Position numbers and translations under genes: made by a program. Under the pieces are notes generated by a model. The model was not told the DNA's origin, ran no database searches, and was given only the letters and a program-made list of their open reading frames with translations. Shown here piece by piece: positions 11,656 through 41,650 of a DNA stretch of 64,000 nt (positions are counted from its first letter, which is position 1; the number at the start of each line of letters is the position of its first letter). Source of the stretch: a virus; the IMG/VR virus record IMGVR_UViG_3300027747_002377, positions 1 through 64,000 of that record. The stretch is one strand, 5' to 3'.

Positions 11656-14118
11656 TCAATACTCTAACTCTAGTTTTCCTCTGGTCATTAAACCATTACA
11701 AAGCCAAACGAGAGCGTCGACACAATCGTCGTGGGAGCTGACACCAAAATTTACAATCTCATCAGTTAGAGCCATAAATTTGCGGTACCTGTTAAAGACT
11801 AGCTTACGTTGCTCAAATAAACCCATAATCCCCCTGAAACGTGCTACTTTGTCCCCGCGAAATCCTTTGACCGCATGCCAGTTAATGTTGTAAAGACCGT
11901 GGTCACCTTGGCATATCCTCCTGAAGTCTGCCTCCAGGGATGCCTGATATGCAACTGCTTCCGACCAAACATCAATGCTGCTTCCGGTTGGGTGGTAATC
12001 ATTACCGTCTTTATGCACTACTCCCCATTCATACAGCATTTCCATTAAAGCTTCGAGTTTTTCTAGGTTTCCCATGATGCGAATTCGCTTGCAATCAATA
12101 ATGTGAATTTTGTCCCCTACTCTTCCGCCCATAACAAACACGGTGTAGTCATTACGTTCTCTTACTCCAGCAGATAAATCAACGCCAATACCAAGTGAAT
12201 CAAAGTGCGTAGAAATTTGACCCTTAACAATTAAGTCAGGTGAGATAGATAGTTCACTGGTCTGTACGATTTGATTTTGATACTGAAAACTAAAACTGAT
12301 TGGAGCTTGACGGCGGCGATCTTGAAGGTATTCAAGTGACCACATTTCAGGCCAATAAGAAACTTCGTCGCCTTGTTCGTCTACAGTAATGGCAGATTGG
12401 ACAATCTGTACCCAATCGTTGCCAGGGGTGAAGGTACTGGCATGAACATCATCATGACGGAACCTAGTACCTAGACAGACTGCACGTCCACCTTCAAACA
12501 TTGTTGGTGTGATAACTGAGTTCCAGTTATCCTCCATTGCCACTCGGATATCCCTGTTCTTAATGTCGTCAGAGCTCTTAATCGGGTCATCTATTATACA
12601 ATTTGCTACACAGAACTTACCTTTACCCGCAAAGAAGTTATGGTTTGTGGATCTTGTTTCAAGGTCATAGACATACTCCTCTCCGCTGCTAATTTCTGAA
12701 ACGGCGGAAATGGTAGCTCCACTATCTTTGCTTTTTCTGCTAATTGATGATAGCTTGTATGGCAGGGCCTGCAGACAGTAATTAAATTCTGTAATACGTT
12801 GTTCTTCGGATTTGCATCGATATGGTGCACAACTAAGTTGGTTCTTACGTGTTGATTTTTTGCAGTCAACATTTGTTCCTTGATATTGCATAGAGAACAG
12901 GTCATATTGTCCCTTTTTAAAATTAATTCTCGCAGCTCCGGTAGTTTTGGCCTGCTCATGCCGTGCCGCCAATTTGAGTTCCACTTCCCCTTCATCATTC
13001 TGGAATGAACTTTGGAGGAACAAATTTTTGTACAGTAGACGCTTTCCGAGTTTCTTGGTTGGAAACTCTGATTGCATTCTGGGCAAATCTTTGGAAACAA
13101 AATTTGTTTGTATTTTCCTGCACACTTCTTTGAACAGAAAAACATTTTTATTTTGCTGTTTCGAGATAGCTGTCTCCAGTTTGTATTTACCTGAAAGCTT
13201 GTTTGACAGGTTGGACAACTTGTTTTTATTTTTATCTTGAAGGCAATCGGAATAACTAAGCAGCCGATCCCCAGCTTTGAGATCTTTGGCGCACACAATT
13301 CCCCGCCCTGGGATATAAAAAGGGTGTTCTGGGGTTGCCCGTATGAGATCTCCAGTGCTTGTTTCCACGTGGATAAACCGGTCGGCAAGGCGTCTAGACA
13401 CTGCGTGTATTCCTGACCACTCAACGGCACTTGTTTCTGGGTTGTATGTGCTGACTCTATAATCTTTTGGTTGTTGATACAGGTCATGGATTGGAATGGA
13501 GCCGTGTTGCGTATTGACAAGTGTATCACCTGTCAGGCATAAATGGCTACGCTTTGAGGTCACAGCACCTTTTAGTCCAGCGCAACAAAGAGTAAATTCT
13601 TCTTCACCAGTAGATTTAATGCCAGCAAACTTCCAATCAATACTCCAGTATTCGTTACTATTAATTCCTTTGGCAATCTTCACCATTGGAAATACTTCTT
13701 TGTATGTTTTACTTTCTTCTAAAATTCTTTTGATGGCTGCACTTTTAGGGCGAGCAACATCAACGGTATAAGAAATGTAAAGAATCTTTAGTGGTTTTTT
13801 ATTTAATGCGTGTACACCGATTGTCCATGCTGTGAACAAACCTAAAATGGTCGACTTGGCTGAACCCCGTGGTCCTAATATGTCTACGTTTGGTCCTGCA
13901 ATACCAATCAAGCACTCAGAATCATTTCCTGTGCATAGGTGCTGATGCCAGAGAAGGTGGTGAGCTGCTGGCGGTTTGTCGCCAACTACAGTACAGAAGT
14001 AAGCAAAGTCTACCCGTGCCCGTTCAATATCAATGTCGGAACTTTTTTTTACTACTTGTTGCTTTGCTGCAGCACGTGCAGTCCTCCGGTAAACGGAGTA
14101 TAGGGAAGTACCAGCCAT
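11656..14118 (-). CDS. terL: Terminase large subunit, intein-containing
   Basis: Walker A-like GPRGSAKST; Walker B (L|CIIDD) interrupted by an intein; GTRF coupling motif; RNase H nuclease motifs GVDLS and HDDCVDA. Confidence 0.93.
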   Translation of the reverse strand: MAGTSLYSVYRRTARAAAKQQVVKKSSDIDIERARVDFAYFCTVVGDKPPAAHHLLWHQHLCTGNDSECLIGIAGPNVDILGPRGSAKSTILGLFTAWTIGVHALNKKPLKILYISYTVDVARPKSAAIKRILEESKTYKEVFPMVKIAKGINSNEYWSIDWKFAGIKSTGEEEFTLCCAGLKGAVTSKRSHLCLTGDTLVNTQHGSIPIHDLYQQPKDYRVSTYNPETSAVEWSGIHAVSRRLADRFIHVETSTGDLIRATPEHPFYIPGRGIVCAKDLKAGDRLLSYSDCLQDKNKNKLSNLSNKLSGKYKLETAISKQQNKNVFLFKEVCRKIQTNFVSKDLPRMQSEFPTKKLGKRLLYKNLFLQSSFQNDEGEVELKLAARHEQAKTTGAARINFKKGQYDLFSMQYQGTNVDCKKSTRKNQLSCAPYRCKSEEQRITEFNYCLQALPYKLSSISRKSKDSGATISAVSEISSGEEYVYDLETRSTNHNFFAGKGKFCVANCIIDDPIKSSDDIKNRDIRVAMEDNWNSVITPTMFEGGRAVCLGTRFRHDDVHASTFTPGNDWVQIVQSAITVDEQGDEVSYWPEMWSLEYLQDRRRQAPISFSFQYQNQIVQTSELSISPDLIVKGQISTHFDSLGIGVDLSAGVRERNDYTVFVMGGRVGDKIHIIDCKRIRIMGNLEKLEALMEMLYEWGVVHKDGNDYHPTGSSIDVWSEAVAYQASLEADFRRICQGDHGLYNINWHAVKGFRGDKVARFRGIMGLFEQRKLVFNRYRKFMALTDEIVNFGVSSHDDCVDALVWLCNGLMTRGKLELEY
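12601..13539 (-). mobile_element. Intein in TerL (313 aa), inserted in the Walker B strand
   Basis: Block A CLTGDT, block B TPEHPF, block F YVYDLET..NHNFFA, ends VAN|C (penultimate Ala rather than His). Confidence 0.9.
12606..13529 (-). CDS. Zn-finger HNH homing endonuclease in an alternative frame inside the TerL intein
   Basis: CPTC, CSKKC, CPEC, CTKIC, then RDNMTCSLC...VHHIDANPKNNVLQNLITVCRPCH. Start uncertain (GTG 13529 or ATG 13487). Confidence 0.8.
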   Translation of the reverse strand: MIHLSIRNTAPFQSMTCINNQKIIESAHTTQKQVPLSGQEYTQCLDALPTGLSTWKQALEISYGQPQNTLFISQGGELCAPKISKLGIGCLVIPIAFKIKIKTSCPTCQTSFQVNTNWRQLSRNSKIKMFFCSKKCAGKYKQILFPKICPECNQSFQPRNSESVYCTKICSSKVHSRMMKGKWNSNWRHGMSRPKLPELRELILKRDNMTCSLCNIKEQMLTAKNQHVRTNLVVHHIDANPKNNVLQNLITVCRPCHTSYHQLAEKAKIVELPFPPFQKLAAERSMSMTLKQDPQTITSLRVKVSSV

Positions 14119-14142
14119 GCCATCAGCTTAGTGTACTAAACC

Positions 14143-14628
14143 TTAGGACTCTTCCGACAGAATCTTTGTCCAGACACCCATGGACGCTTCTTGAAGTGGG
14201 CCTTCAATTGGATCGTCACGGAAGATAGAAAGCATTTCCCTTAGTGCACGGTCTGCACCAGCAAGAATCAAACCTTGTTTATCGGTAAGAACTTTCTCGT
14301 CGTTGATCTGTTTAATTGAGCCACGCAATTCTTTTTGAAGCATGGCAATGCGGGAAGTTCCCATATCTTGTTTTACCATACCAAGATCAATTGCATCACG
14401 AAGTTTTGCAATGTCTTGCTGCATGGAGTCAACCTCTTCCTCTAGTAACGCATTAAAGTTTCTTTTTGGATATTCTTTCTTTGACCACTCGTCGCACTCA
14501 ACAATGCTACCTTTAAACCCGAGAAAACGGGCATAGAGGTACATTTGAATTGGTGTAGAGGTTTTTTTGCAAAATGCAAAAAAGGATTCGCGGTCTTTTT
14601 CAGTTAGGCTTTGAACCCATTTAATCAT
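14143..14628 (-). CDS. Candidate terminase small subunit
   Basis: 161-aa helical protein immediately upstream of terL; position only. Confidence 0.4.
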   Translation of the reverse strand: MIKWVQSLTEKDRESFFAFCKKTSTPIQMYLYARFLGFKGSIVECDEWSKKEYPKRNFNALLEEEVDSMQQDIAKLRDAIDLGMVKQDMGTSRIAMLQKELRGSIKQINDEKVLTDKQGLILAGADRALREMLSIFRDDPIEGPLQEASMGVWTKILSEES

Positions 14629-39007: not shown

Positions 39008-41650
39008 ATGACAAGATTTGTACTTGACCTTGAGTCCAACGGTCTGCTGCCGACCATGGACAAAATTCATTGTATTGTCCTTTATGATCTAGACAAACAA
39101 GAGTATATTAGCTGCGCTGATCAACCTGGATATAAACCATTAAGTTATGCTATTGAGTGTATCCAACAGGCTACACTCTTGGTGGGTCATAACGTAATTA
39201 AGTTTGATATTCCTGCTCTCAAAAAGATTTACCCTGATCTCATACTGAGTCCGGATTGCACTTATTTTGATACGCTTATCACCAGTAGGTTGTTCTGGCC
39301 GGAGCTTGAGCCAGTTGATCACGCTAAGTACAGTCACATAGAACGTAAGTACTTTGGTAGGCATTCATTGGCTGCCTGGGGTGAACGTCTTGGCGTAAGT
39401 AAAATTGACTTTAAGGCTGAGTTAAAAGAACAAGAGGAAGAAGTTAAGAACGTATGGGAATCTTGGTCCGCCACCATGCAAACTTACTGCATGGCAGGCC
39501 ACCACAAGTTTTTGCGTGACGATTTAAGTTGGGTCCCGTGCAAAGATATACACGAAGGTGACACAATTTTAGGGTTTGACGAGTTTCCAGAAAAACAAAC
39601 TGGTCGGTGTTTTAAGCCTACAAAAATATTAAAAAAAACAACAGATCAAGCTGAACTGTTTCGCGTTACTTTGAAATCAGGAAAAACTTTTGATGTCACA
39701 GCTGAACATAAGTGGTTGGTAAGAAACTACAAATCACGTTCATCTTTGCAAAACCCTTTTGAAACCAGAACTCAACTAGTTTGGGCGGAAACTAAAGATT
39801 TAATGGCATCAAAATGTTTTGCAATTAAATATATGAATACTTGGGAAGATGTAAAAACATGGGAGGCAGGTTATCTTGCAGGAATTTTTGACGGCGAAGG
39901 CAATGTTAGAAGGCATCAGAAGTGGGACCGCCTTGATTATTCTTTTGCGCAAAAACCTGGTGTGGTGCACGATTTAGCGTGCAAAATTATTAATAATTTG
40001 GGTTTCAGATATACTACAAGAAAAGTAATGAATACTGGTGATTGCGATTGTATTAGAGTTGTAGGCACTTGTTATGAAAAGCTTAGATTGTTGGGCATGA
40101 TTAAGCCTGTTCGATTAATTAAAAATGCGCAACCTTTTGAGCGCCTTGGAAGGTGTGAAGTCAAGGGTGAAGGGGATTTTGATGAAATTGTTTCGGTTAT
40201 TTCTATCGGAATGGACGTAATTTATAAGATAAGTACTGATACTAAAACATTTGTTTTAGATGGCTATGCTCACCACAACTGTGAAGGTGACATTAAAGTT
40301 TCTATACGTCTGTATGACTACATGCTCAGCCAACAAGCTGACCCACGATCAGTAGAGCTAGAGCATCAATTTGCTTTAGTAATGGCAAAACAAGAACAAT
40401 TTGGATTTCCTTTTAATGAGAAAGCGGCCTTCGCATTGGTTAACACACTCAAAGCCAAGAGGACTGAGATCAACGACCGCCTCCAGGAAGTGTTCCCATC
40501 TATCGTCGAGGAACGGTGGTCAACTAAGACGGGTAAACGGCTTAAGAACAAGGTGCAGATCTTTAATCCAGGTTCTAGGCAGCAAACTTCTGAGCGGCTT
40601 AAGGCGCTTTACCCAGAAATTACTTTCGACACCACGGAGAAAGGGAATCCTCAGGTAGATGATGATGTGCTGGAAAAGCTTGGCACAAAGTATCCTGAAG
40701 CTAAACTACTAGCTGAGTACCAAACGCTAAACAAACGACTTGGACAAATCGCAGAAGGAAAAGAAGCCTGGCTTAAGCACGTTCAGGTTTATGGCGATGG
40801 TCGAATTCATGGTGAAGTCATCACCAATGCTTGCATCAGTGGTAGGTGCAGCCACAAGCGTCCAAACATGGCGCAGGTACCCAGTGTTGGCCACGCTTAT
40901 GGTTCTGAATGTCGGGCTCTTTTTTATGCTCCTGATGGGTGGAAATTAGTTGGCGCCGACGCATCAGGACTTGAGTTACGTGCACTCGGAGCATGGCTTG
41001 CCTACTTCGACGAAGGAGATTATGCAAGGCTTGTTAGTGACCCTGCTGTCGATATTCATAGTTACAACGCTCGTATGTTCGGTATTTATAGTGGTGATAA
41101 CCCTATAACAAAAGCCGAAAGGGACCTATCAAAGAAGCTAATCTTTGCTCTTGCTTATGGTGCTGGCGCAAAAAAAGTTGGTAGTATCGTACTGCCTTTT
41201 GGAAGTGAAGATGAACAATATAAACAAGGTAAAAAAACAATGGAAACGTTCTACGATAACCTTCCTGCTATTAAGCAACTAAAAGATCTCATTGAGAAGC
41301 GCGTTAATGAGAAAGGATACTTAACTGGGATCGACGGCAGAAGGCTACAGATCAGATCAAAGCATGCTGCCCTGAACCAATTGCTCCAGAGTACCGGGGC
41401 AATAGCAGTTAAGAAAGCTACATGTATTTTGTATGAGGACTTAAAAACTATTGGATTAGAGTTCGGCAAACACTGGGGTTATGTTGCACACGTCCATGAT
41501 GAATTTCAAGCACTCGTTCTCCCAGCTTATGTAGAAACTTATATGAAGGTGGCAATTGATTCCTTTAAGAAAGCTGGTGAGTACTTTAACCTAAAGTGTC
41601 CACTGACAGGTGAGGCCAGGGTAGGACAGAACTGGATGGAAAGCCACTAA
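39008..41650 (+). CDS. polA: Family A (T7-like) DNA polymerase with 3'-5' exonuclease, intein-containing
   Basis: ExoI DLESNG, ExoII GHNVIKFD, motif A DASGLELR, motif B KKLIFALAYG, motif C HVHDE. Confidence 0.95.
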   Translation: MTRFVLDLESNGLLPTMDKIHCIVLYDLDKQEYISCADQPGYKPLSYAIECIQQATLLVGHNVIKFDIPALKKIYPDLILSPDCTYFDTLITSRLFWPELEPVDHAKYSHIERKYFGRHSLAAWGERLGVSKIDFKAELKEQEEEVKNVWESWSATMQTYCMAGHHKFLRDDLSWVPCKDIHEGDTILGFDEFPEKQTGRCFKPTKILKKTTDQAELFRVTLKSGKTFDVTAEHKWLVRNYKSRSSLQNPFETRTQLVWAETKDLMASKCFAIKYMNTWEDVKTWEAGYLAGIFDGEGNVRRHQKWDRLDYSFAQKPGVVHDLACKIINNLGFRYTTRKVMNTGDCDCIRVVGTCYEKLRLLGMIKPVRLIKNAQPFERLGRCEVKGEGDFDEIVSVISIGMDVIYKISTDTKTFVLDGYAHHNCEGDIKVSIRLYDYMLSQQADPRSVELEHQFALVMAKQEQFGFPFNEKAAFALVNTLKAKRTEINDRLQEVFPSIVEERWSTKTGKRLKNKVQIFNPGSRQQTSERLKALYPEITFDTTEKGNPQVDDDVLEKLGTKYPEAKLLAEYQTLNKRLGQIAEGKEAWLKHVQVYGDGRIHGEVITNACISGRCSHKRPNMAQVPSVGHAYGSECRALFYAPDGWKLVGADASGLELRALGAWLAYFDEGDYARLVSDPAVDIHSYNARMFGIYSGDNPITKAERDLSKKLIFALAYGAGAKKVGSIVLPFGSEDEQYKQGKKTMETFYDNLPAIKQLKDLIEKRVNEKGYLTGIDGRRLQIRSKHAALNQLLQSTGAIAVKKATCILYEDLKTIGLEFGKHWGYVAHVHDEFQALVLPAYVETYMKVAIDSFKKAGEYFNLKCPLTGEARVGQNWMESH
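39488..40279 (+). mobile_element. Intein (264 aa) with LAGLIDADG endonuclease, in the ExoIII motif of the polymerase
   Basis: Y|CMAGHH...TAEHKW...YLAGIFDGEG...AHHN|CEGD. Confidence 0.92.

Follow-up and report, generated by a model that had tools for sequence, protein, structure and literature searches.

The 64,000-nucleotide stretch analysed here (positions 1 to 64,000 of the IMG/VR virus record IMGVR_UViG_3300027747_002377, hereafter the window), which derives from a phage of a freshwater metagenome, contains a gene for the large subunit of terminase, terL, whose coding frame (frame 0) runs uninterrupted through an insert of 939 nucleotides (nt), and the same strand of the insert harbours a second long open reading frame (ORF). 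By taking into account sequence motifs, structural models, substitution patterns and the distribution of related loci, the insert is interpreted as a mobile intein that encodes two functions in two frames of one strand, the splicing domain in the terL frame and an HNH homing endonuclease in the other, with a probability that we estimate at approximately 0.82.

The terL precursor ORF (11656–14118, minus strand, as for all features of this locus) was identified by ORF calling and a match to PHROG 38 (terminase large subunit, E = 8e-68). It encodes 820 amino acid residues (aa), includes a Terminase_6C domain, and its product and the TerL of Synechococcus phage S-EIVl are 50% identical in aa. From the ORF and alignments, the N-extein corresponds to TerL aa 1–193 (13540–14118) and ends with TSKRSHL; the intein extends from C194 (13539) to N506 (12601), i.e. 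313 aa (C1 to N313 in intein numbering; 12601–13539); and the C-extein (11656–12600, stop codon included) begins with the +1 nucleophile Cys of CIIDDPIK. Thus, the intein is directly followed by the Walker B motif (CIIDD), and the insertion site is identical across all related loci; the length of 939 nt is also identical in five close relatives. The intein landmarks CLTGDTLV, TPEHPF, VYDLE, HNFFA and VAN, the latter followed by Cys, and a Pfam Intein_splicing match on the TerL frame (E = 1e-11) bear out the splicing blocks A, B, F and G that had been read in an earlier note on this DNA, which had also stated that the in-frame insert carries no recognisable domain; indeed, the Pfam scan matched none in the approximately 170-aa middle of the frame-0 intein.

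From the model confidence (pLDDT, predicted local distance difference test), the alignment and the substitution periodicity described below, frame 0 can be divided into an N-terminal splicing (Hint) half (intein aa 1–100, 13240–13539) that carries block A (CLTGDTLV) and block B (TPEHPF), and a C-terminal splicing half (aa 275–313, 12601–12717), where block F (VYDLE..HNFFA) and block G (VAN) are located. The linker that separates them (aa approx. 101–274, 12718–13239) is stop-free, without protein-level constraint and predicted to be unstructured, as judged from pLDDT, stop counts and the ratio of nonsynonymous to synonymous substitution rates (dN/dS). The AlphaFold (AF2) model of the frame-0 intein, calculated from a 31-sequence alignment, has pLDDT values of 93–97 for aa 1–100 and 92–95 for aa 275–313, and of 36–46 for aa 111–270. 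C1, T69 and H72 (of TPEH) and the C-terminal N313 are invariant in this alignment, and the +1 extein Cys of CIIDD is present. Foldseek returned the Ssp/Npu DnaB, RecA and DnaE inteins as best matches of the model (E down to 6e-7), the mini-inteins such as Ssp and Npu DnaB being at E values of about 1e-6. On the basis of the model, the frame-0 ends form a Hint-fold splicing domain of a class-1-type intein, and splicing is expected to take place because terL is essential and its frame is kept open.

The second ORF encodes 307 aa from a GTG at 13529 to the stop codon TAG at 12608–12606 (12606–13529), as the earlier note had seen, and its frame is open from stop to stop over 13532–12609, nearly the entire intein. 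The distance between the two starts (14118 − 13529 = 589 = 3 × 196 + 1) places it in the +1 frame with respect to terL. Its identification as an HNH homing endonuclease gene stems from a match of PHROG 1271 (HNH endonuclease) to aa 97–263 (E = 1.3e-23) and from the motifs CPTC...CSKKC, CPEC...CTKIC and CSLC...HH...N...CRPCH, in agreement with the four Cys knuckles and HNH domain previously attributed to this frame. The first two motifs form two putative zinc ribbons (C105xxC108...C132xxxC136 and C149xxC152...C166xxxC170; 13020–13217), assigned by conservation and modelling, whose eight Cys residues are all invariant among 38 sequences. The HNH catalytic core (C211xxC214...H235 H236...N248...C253xxC256 H257...H261; 12747–12899) was assigned by conservation, model and fold matches: C211, C214, H235, H236, N248, C253 and H257 are invariant in the same set, and C256 is nearly so. 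A helical tail (LPFPPFQKLAAERSMSMTLK...TSL...; 12609–12722), recognised from motif reading, the model and constraint, completes the protein. The bases encoding it also encode the last β-strands and blocks F and G of the intein, so that the two frames truly overlap.

In the AlphaFold model of the +1 product, the first 94 aa have pLDDT values below 50, aa 100–270 are in the 85–97 range (85–97 for the zinc ribbons, about 90 for the HNH core) and the helical tail is at 66–76. The confidence is therefore complementary between the frames, being high for the ends in frame 0 and for the middle in the +1 frame. With regard to the ββα-metal fold, the best matches of this model among Protein Data Bank structures were the HNH nucleases ScoMcrA, Cap5, EcoKMcrA and PacI, with Foldseek probabilities up to 1.0 and E values of only 0.01–0.1.

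Assembly error does not account for the two-frame layout. In three further sequencing runs (X3, X11 and X13), the contigs align to the window with no gaps over the intein. A diverged 19-kb contig (X15; approx. 91% identical to the window), obtained from a sediment metatranscriptome library, perhaps due to DNA carry-over and no evidence of transcription or translation, contains two indels of 1 nt each, a deletion and an insertion, at 13306/13311. These are 5 nt apart, lie in the N-splice region outside the HNH borders, and cause a local excursion of 1–2 codons in both frames.

Stop codon counts in 30 non-redundant related loci show that both frames are kept open. Over the HNH-coding stretch (6318 codons in total) no stop was found in frame 0 and none in the +1 frame, against 269 in the +2 frame. 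In the N-splice region the values were 0, 2.3 and 6.9 stops per 100 codons for frames 0, +1 and +2, respectively, and in the last 36 codons of the intein they were 0, 0.86 and 8.9. For comparison, the off-frames of the flanking exteins contain about 4 stops per 100 codons, and in 19 free-standing HNH homologues the frame that corresponds to frame 0 contains 10.4 per 100. The doubly open HNH stretch is thus well beyond chance expectation.

The positions of substitutions, compared over 145 pairs of loci that are phylogenetically non-independent, reveal which frame is constrained. Substitutions peak at third positions of frame 0 in the N-splice region and the exteins, and at third positions of the +1 frame in the HNH centre (0.48 versus 0.28–0.33). 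The periodicity switches from frame 0 to +1 approximately 90 nt upstream of the first CxxC and returns to frame 0 approximately 60–90 nt before the end of the intein, up to which the +1 constraint extends. The dN/dS values, calculated according to Nei–Gojobori for the HNH region of six gap-free 939-nt inteins of the window's clade, were 0.04–0.13 in the +1 frame and 1.06–2.3 in frame 0. The HNH frame is therefore under purifying selection in the centre and the intein frame at the ends, the pattern that had been predicted, and the frame-0 linker is without protein-level constraint. With the intact relatives and the agreeing assemblies, this result sustains the earlier proposal of an HNH gene overprinted in a mini-type intein whose splicing would remove a meaningless linker.

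The distribution of the intein was studied in the 80 closest terL relatives, with C-exteins 86–100% identical to that of the window. In 75 of them the intein is absent and KRSHL is joined directly to CIIDD; the five intein-bearing genes belong to three different extein backgrounds. The intein is also more similar than its surroundings: for the window and locus L089, intein identity is 96.2% with exteins at 84–85%, and for L099 and L111 it is 89% with exteins at 77–78%. Patchy presence together with an intein identity exceeding that of the exteins argues for recent horizontal transfer, with a nuclease that is active or was so recently, and points to recent homing of the TerL intein. By the same evidence, the HNH protein would cleave the intein-less terL allele.

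A phmmer search with the +1 product against 1.84 billion representative sequences returned 153 homologues at E < 1e-10, most of them 200–470 aa long. Their genomic context was deduced from tails that correspond to blocks F/G read in the +1 frame, and from loci fetched otherwise. The C-termini share SMTSKW..TSLQ..YSSTTA, i.e. the +1 reading of the intein VYDLEV..HNF..VHN followed by Cys; several homologues carry LPTTLS, the +1 reading of block B, and some begin with MVTLLF, that of GDTLV. The block F/G tail was detected in 29 of 150 homologues with a strict regular expression, which undercounts, and by eye in most of the top 100 or so. A profile search of IMG/VR showed that in about 45 of 50 strongly matching contigs a +1 HNH ORF of 280–490 aa lies inside a frame-0 ORF of 850–1300 aa, with the third frame broken. 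The insertion site of the related loci conforms to a common pattern, ...TG.G.D, then C...VHN, then C(I/L)IDDP. The same arrangement is present in eight prophages of Actinomycetota and Bacillota genomes, in Gordonia phage Clown, in Ralstonia phage RS-CA1 and in 41 Brucella phage records, as well as in the cultured phage S-EIVl, with a terL of 846 aa and a +1 ORF of 319 aa at approximately 35% nucleotide difference.

No break in frame 0 occurs in the window or in any of the embedded related loci. The HNH frame, whose interruption in relatives had been named in the earlier note as an argument that would count against the proposal, is intact in nearly all of them. In L003 (3501–4349) and L030 (3501–4214) it is interrupted with the terL frame open, and L051 and L052 contain mini-inteins of 157 and 197 aa, from which the HNH has been largely deleted; all four have the appearance of late steps in the homing cycle. 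A few other frame-0 ORFs (L010/L169, 1315 aa; L014, 1198 aa; L039/L040, 1221 aa; L045, 1116 aa) exceed the rest by 250–450 aa and may contain a second intein or an extra domain. The HNH homologues P0059, P0038, P0009 and P0146 have tails such as DMPDEWHEAVSALAEKYAAAA, diverged but resembling, at the protein level, the block-F/G-overprinted tail SMTSKWKETVTSLQEKYSSTTA; they may be free-standing descendants that retain a tail born by overprinting.

With respect to the synthesis of the nuclease, the start-codon list of the window yields three candidates: an ATG at intein offset 52 (13485–13487), the sole ATG upstream of the zinc ribbons; a GTG at offset 10 (13527–13529); and a TTG at offset 241 (13296–13298), which follows ggcggggaa. 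The ATG and the GTG are conserved in five members of the clade, so that translation of the +1 frame may start near the beginning of the intein in this group. In the case of Brucella phage Tb, only seven codons separate the opening of the +1 frame from a GTG that follows aaaggagaag, and similarly tight arrangements of stop codon, Shine–Dalgarno (SD) sequence and ATG are found in L046 and L035. A scan of 12500–14300 for σ70 promoters and terminators returned matches no more frequent than in shuffled sequence, leaving an internal promoter unsupported. Most likely, we infer, the HNH is made as a separate protein by internal initiation on the terL mRNA.

For the window's clade, the most extreme version of this arrangement is that the nuclease gene is co-extensive with the intein and starts at the conserved GTG or ATG. 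Within intein nt 45–225 (13314–13494), the divergence at frame-0 third (synonymous) positions is only 0.07–0.31, whereas the exteins reach about 0.5 and the next bin 0.72, and variability in this stretch is highest at the +1 third positions; this may reflect dual-frame constraint on the Hint N-domain or, alternatively, a mosaic history. If the gene were co-extensive with the intein, purifying selection would act in both frames simultaneously on approximately 60 codons of the Hint N-domain and on approximately 35 codons of blocks F/G. As a corollary, the element would go back to a single ancient event, the entry of a free-standing HNH gene into a mini-intein of a GC-rich phage in which off-frame stops are rare, and homing would then have spread it through phages of at least four bacterial phyla with a constant +1 offset. 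Co-extensiveness and single origin, taken together, are put forward tentatively, and we consider them rather doubtful.

Some observations speak against the interpretation of the insert as an intein with an active out-of-frame nuclease. The Pfam HNH and HNH_3 matches to the +1 ORF reach only 16–18 bits, below the gathering thresholds, and the E values of the fold matches of its model are weak, as seen above. The penultimate residue of the intein is Ala (VAN) in the window, where His is usual; it is Leu (VLN) in S-EIVl and His in nearly all other members of the family. A penultimate His is frequent, though not universal, in active inteins. A simple SD search found no convincing site before any of the candidate starts in the window. 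Across the loci, on the other hand, SD-like motifs combined with a start codon in the N-splice region are more frequent in the +1 phase (33) than in the other two (10 and 9), in favour of internal initiation; this count may partly reflect conserved GD codons at fixed phase, and the loci are phylogenetically related.

Among the alternatives, programmed ribosomal frameshifting out of the terL frame would also give rise to the HNH, either by a single +1 shift leading to a fusion of TerL-N, intein-N and HNH, or by a +1 and then a −1 shift generating a canonical in-frame HNH intein in some of the ribosomes. The A-rich run GAT AAA AAT AAA AAC found in the window exactly at the frame switch, the lack of a strong SD sequence before the candidate starts and the opening of the +1 frame from the first intein codons in the window's clade would fit such a scheme. 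However, the sister lineage does not retain the A-runs, its +1 peptide being GVQIKT or NIQIKT as against KIKIKT in the window, and the GC-rich loci have no A-runs at the switch, although no formal motif search over all loci was made. In Tb, L046 and L035 the +1 stop a few codons upstream of the SD-preceded start leaves almost no space for a shift site, and the enrichment of SD plus start combinations in the +1 phase also favours initiation. An obligatory double shift, which would lift the selection against frame-0 stops, is excluded because frame 0 remains stop-free, and the single +1 shift is disfavoured. Frameshifting as a whole is therefore regarded as improbable, with internal initiation being preferred.

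It could also be argued that the HNH serves phage packaging, like the terminase-associated HNH proteins of HK97-like phages, instead of or besides homing. Its location inside terL is compatible with such a role, and a functional association with terminase was speculated upon in a brucellaphage paper (PMC4422536). This proposal appears very unlikely, by taking into account that the intein-less majority of the closest relatives, some with 99–100% identical C-exteins, lack the HNH together with the intein, that conservation is higher in the element than in its flanks, indicating horizontal spread, and that terL is intact in the copies with a broken HNH or a mini-intein. Least probable, to the point of being negligible, is that the layout is an artefact, generated by two compensating indel errors, or a relic, i.e. 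a dead +1 remnant left open by chance. Both frame switches are near short A-runs and X15 does contain a −1/+1 pair. But that pair is within the N-splice region, away from the HNH borders, and the two compensating errors that the earlier note had named as a refutation find no counterpart in the independent assemblies, which are without indels at those borders; more than 50 loci have the identical +1 offset, and so do cultured phages sequenced by other laboratories. A long in-frame fusion of TerL, intein and an HNH of this clade was not found by phmmer or by two targeted searches, the latter two being weak evidence. The low dN/dS of the HNH frame contradicts a dead remnant. As far as sequence data reach, artefact and relic are both refuted.

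With a mobile two-frame intein as the preferred explanation, the following sequence of events may be envisaged. Ribosomes would read terL in frame 0 straight across the 313-aa insert. The first 100 or so and the last 40 or so residues of the intein would fold as the Hint splicing domain, and the approximately 170 residues between the two halves would act as an unconstrained, unstructured linker, of which only freedom from stops is demanded. Protein splicing would then join KRSHL to CIIDD, restoring the Walker B region of TerL. The +1 frame of the central DNA would encode a homing endonuclease of the free-standing type, with its two zinc ribbons, HNH core and helical tail, synthesized as a separate protein, most likely by initiation within the terL mRNA at an internal start codon. 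This nuclease would be expected to cut the intein-less terL of co-infecting relatives near the KRSHL/CIIDD codons, and repair would copy the intein into the cleaved allele.

The same family is already annotated in Brucella phages, and the architecture in general has been described in 2025–26. In the Brucella phages (Tb, Pr, Bk, R/C, Wb and others; Perisivirus) the host gene, the insertion site (VHN, then CVIIDDP) and the +1 offset are as in the window, the TerL frame is likewise open throughout, and the annotated HNH of phage Tb is 31% identical to the +1 product (E = 1e-17) with homologous zinc-ribbon and HNH regions. In record NC_019446, TerL is labelled ‘intein present’ and the overlapping coding sequence in the +1 frame ‘putative HNH endonuclease’. 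The statement of the earlier note that standard annotation would miss the gene thus stands in part: in most pipelines terL alone or the HNH alone is called, whereas the Brucella phage records annotate both overlapping coding sequences. The brucellaphage HNH ORF is shorter (228 aa); its start, preceded by a clear SD sequence, lies shortly upstream of the zinc ribbons, and its stop comes ahead of block G. In the window's clade, on the contrary, the open +1 frame spans practically all of the intein and an SD sequence is not evident. A 2015 paper terms the brucellaphage HNH ‘out of frame’; selection, distribution and mobility were not analysed in the brucellaphage papers.

More recently, Gosselin, Arsenault & Gogarten (bioRxiv 10.1101/2025.01.02.630785) described actinobacteriophage inteins, many of them in terL, whose homing endonuclease is out of the frame of the splicing domain. 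As in the window, the in-frame middle is unstructured and there are signs of continued transfer. Their same-strand case, however, concerns a small endonuclease VII-like homing endonuclease in ‘frame 3’, their HNH inteins being in-frame, whereas a zinc-ribbon HNH in the +1 frame is found here; the 385-aa TerL intein of Gordonia phage Clown, which they list, belongs to the present family. A cyanobacterial dnaX intein with an out-of-frame LAGLIDADG homing endonuclease (Phillips, DeSimone & Gogarten, bioRxiv 10.64898/2026.09.14.751524) resembles the window in the overlapping same-strand endonuclease ORF, the disordered in-frame linker, the frame-dependent ω and the intein-plus and intein-minus alleles. 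Putative SD motifs are described for it, and it differs in the cellular host gene, the LAGLIDADG class and the ‘+2 ORF’. In the ShiLan-type insertion of mycobacteriophage DNA methylases (Arsenault et al., Genes 2025, PMC11855218) an out-of-frame HNH is also hidden in the other frame of an insert that is stop-free in the host frame, with a proposed GTG start near the beginning of the insertion and a stop at its very end. That insert has no splicing domains and stays as a loop in the host protein, unlike the bona fide intein of the window. Finally, the fractured genes of Dassa et al. (NAR 2009, PMC2677866), in which split inteins flank a free-standing homing endonuclease gene, imply a host gene that is physically split into two ORFs with trans-splicing of the products; frame 0 of the window is continuous, with 0 stops, and terL is not split into separately translated ORFs. 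The ORF layout, the frame-specific selection and the homology with the brucellaphage genes place the window's element among the inteins with an out-of-frame endonuclease on the same strand.

Elsewhere in the window, the ORF of a family A DNA polymerase (39008–41650) contains an in-frame insert of approximately 264 aa (39488–40279, plus strand) with the landmarks CMAGHH, TAEHKW and AHHN followed by Cys, and with one LAGLIDADG motif (YLAGIFDGEGN). Pfam matches are weak (Intein_splicing, E = 4e-4; LAGLIDADG_3, E = 0.13). From its sequence, the insert looks like a canonical in-frame intein, as the earlier note had held.

A homing endonuclease gene that resides inside an essential gene usually does so by way of an intron or an in-frame intein. 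Overprinting on the stop-free linker of an intein would be a third way to hide it. What is added here to previous descriptions are the family-wide statistics, the gap-free dN/dS analysis and the intein-plus/minus polymorphism with intein identity exceeding extein identity, along with the link between the brucellaphage annotations of 2012–2015 and the recent literature on ‘non-canonical inteins’ of 2025–26, which treat related things, apparently without cross-reference. Records in which terL is split or the HNH is labelled ‘intron-encoded’ are misleading. With more than 50 loci and dozens of protein clusters at 50% identity, the family offers material for the study of internal initiation inside ORFs, and it is suited to determine what length of unstructured linker an intein tolerates (from 170 to more than 300 aa) and how selection acts on two frames of the same DNA.

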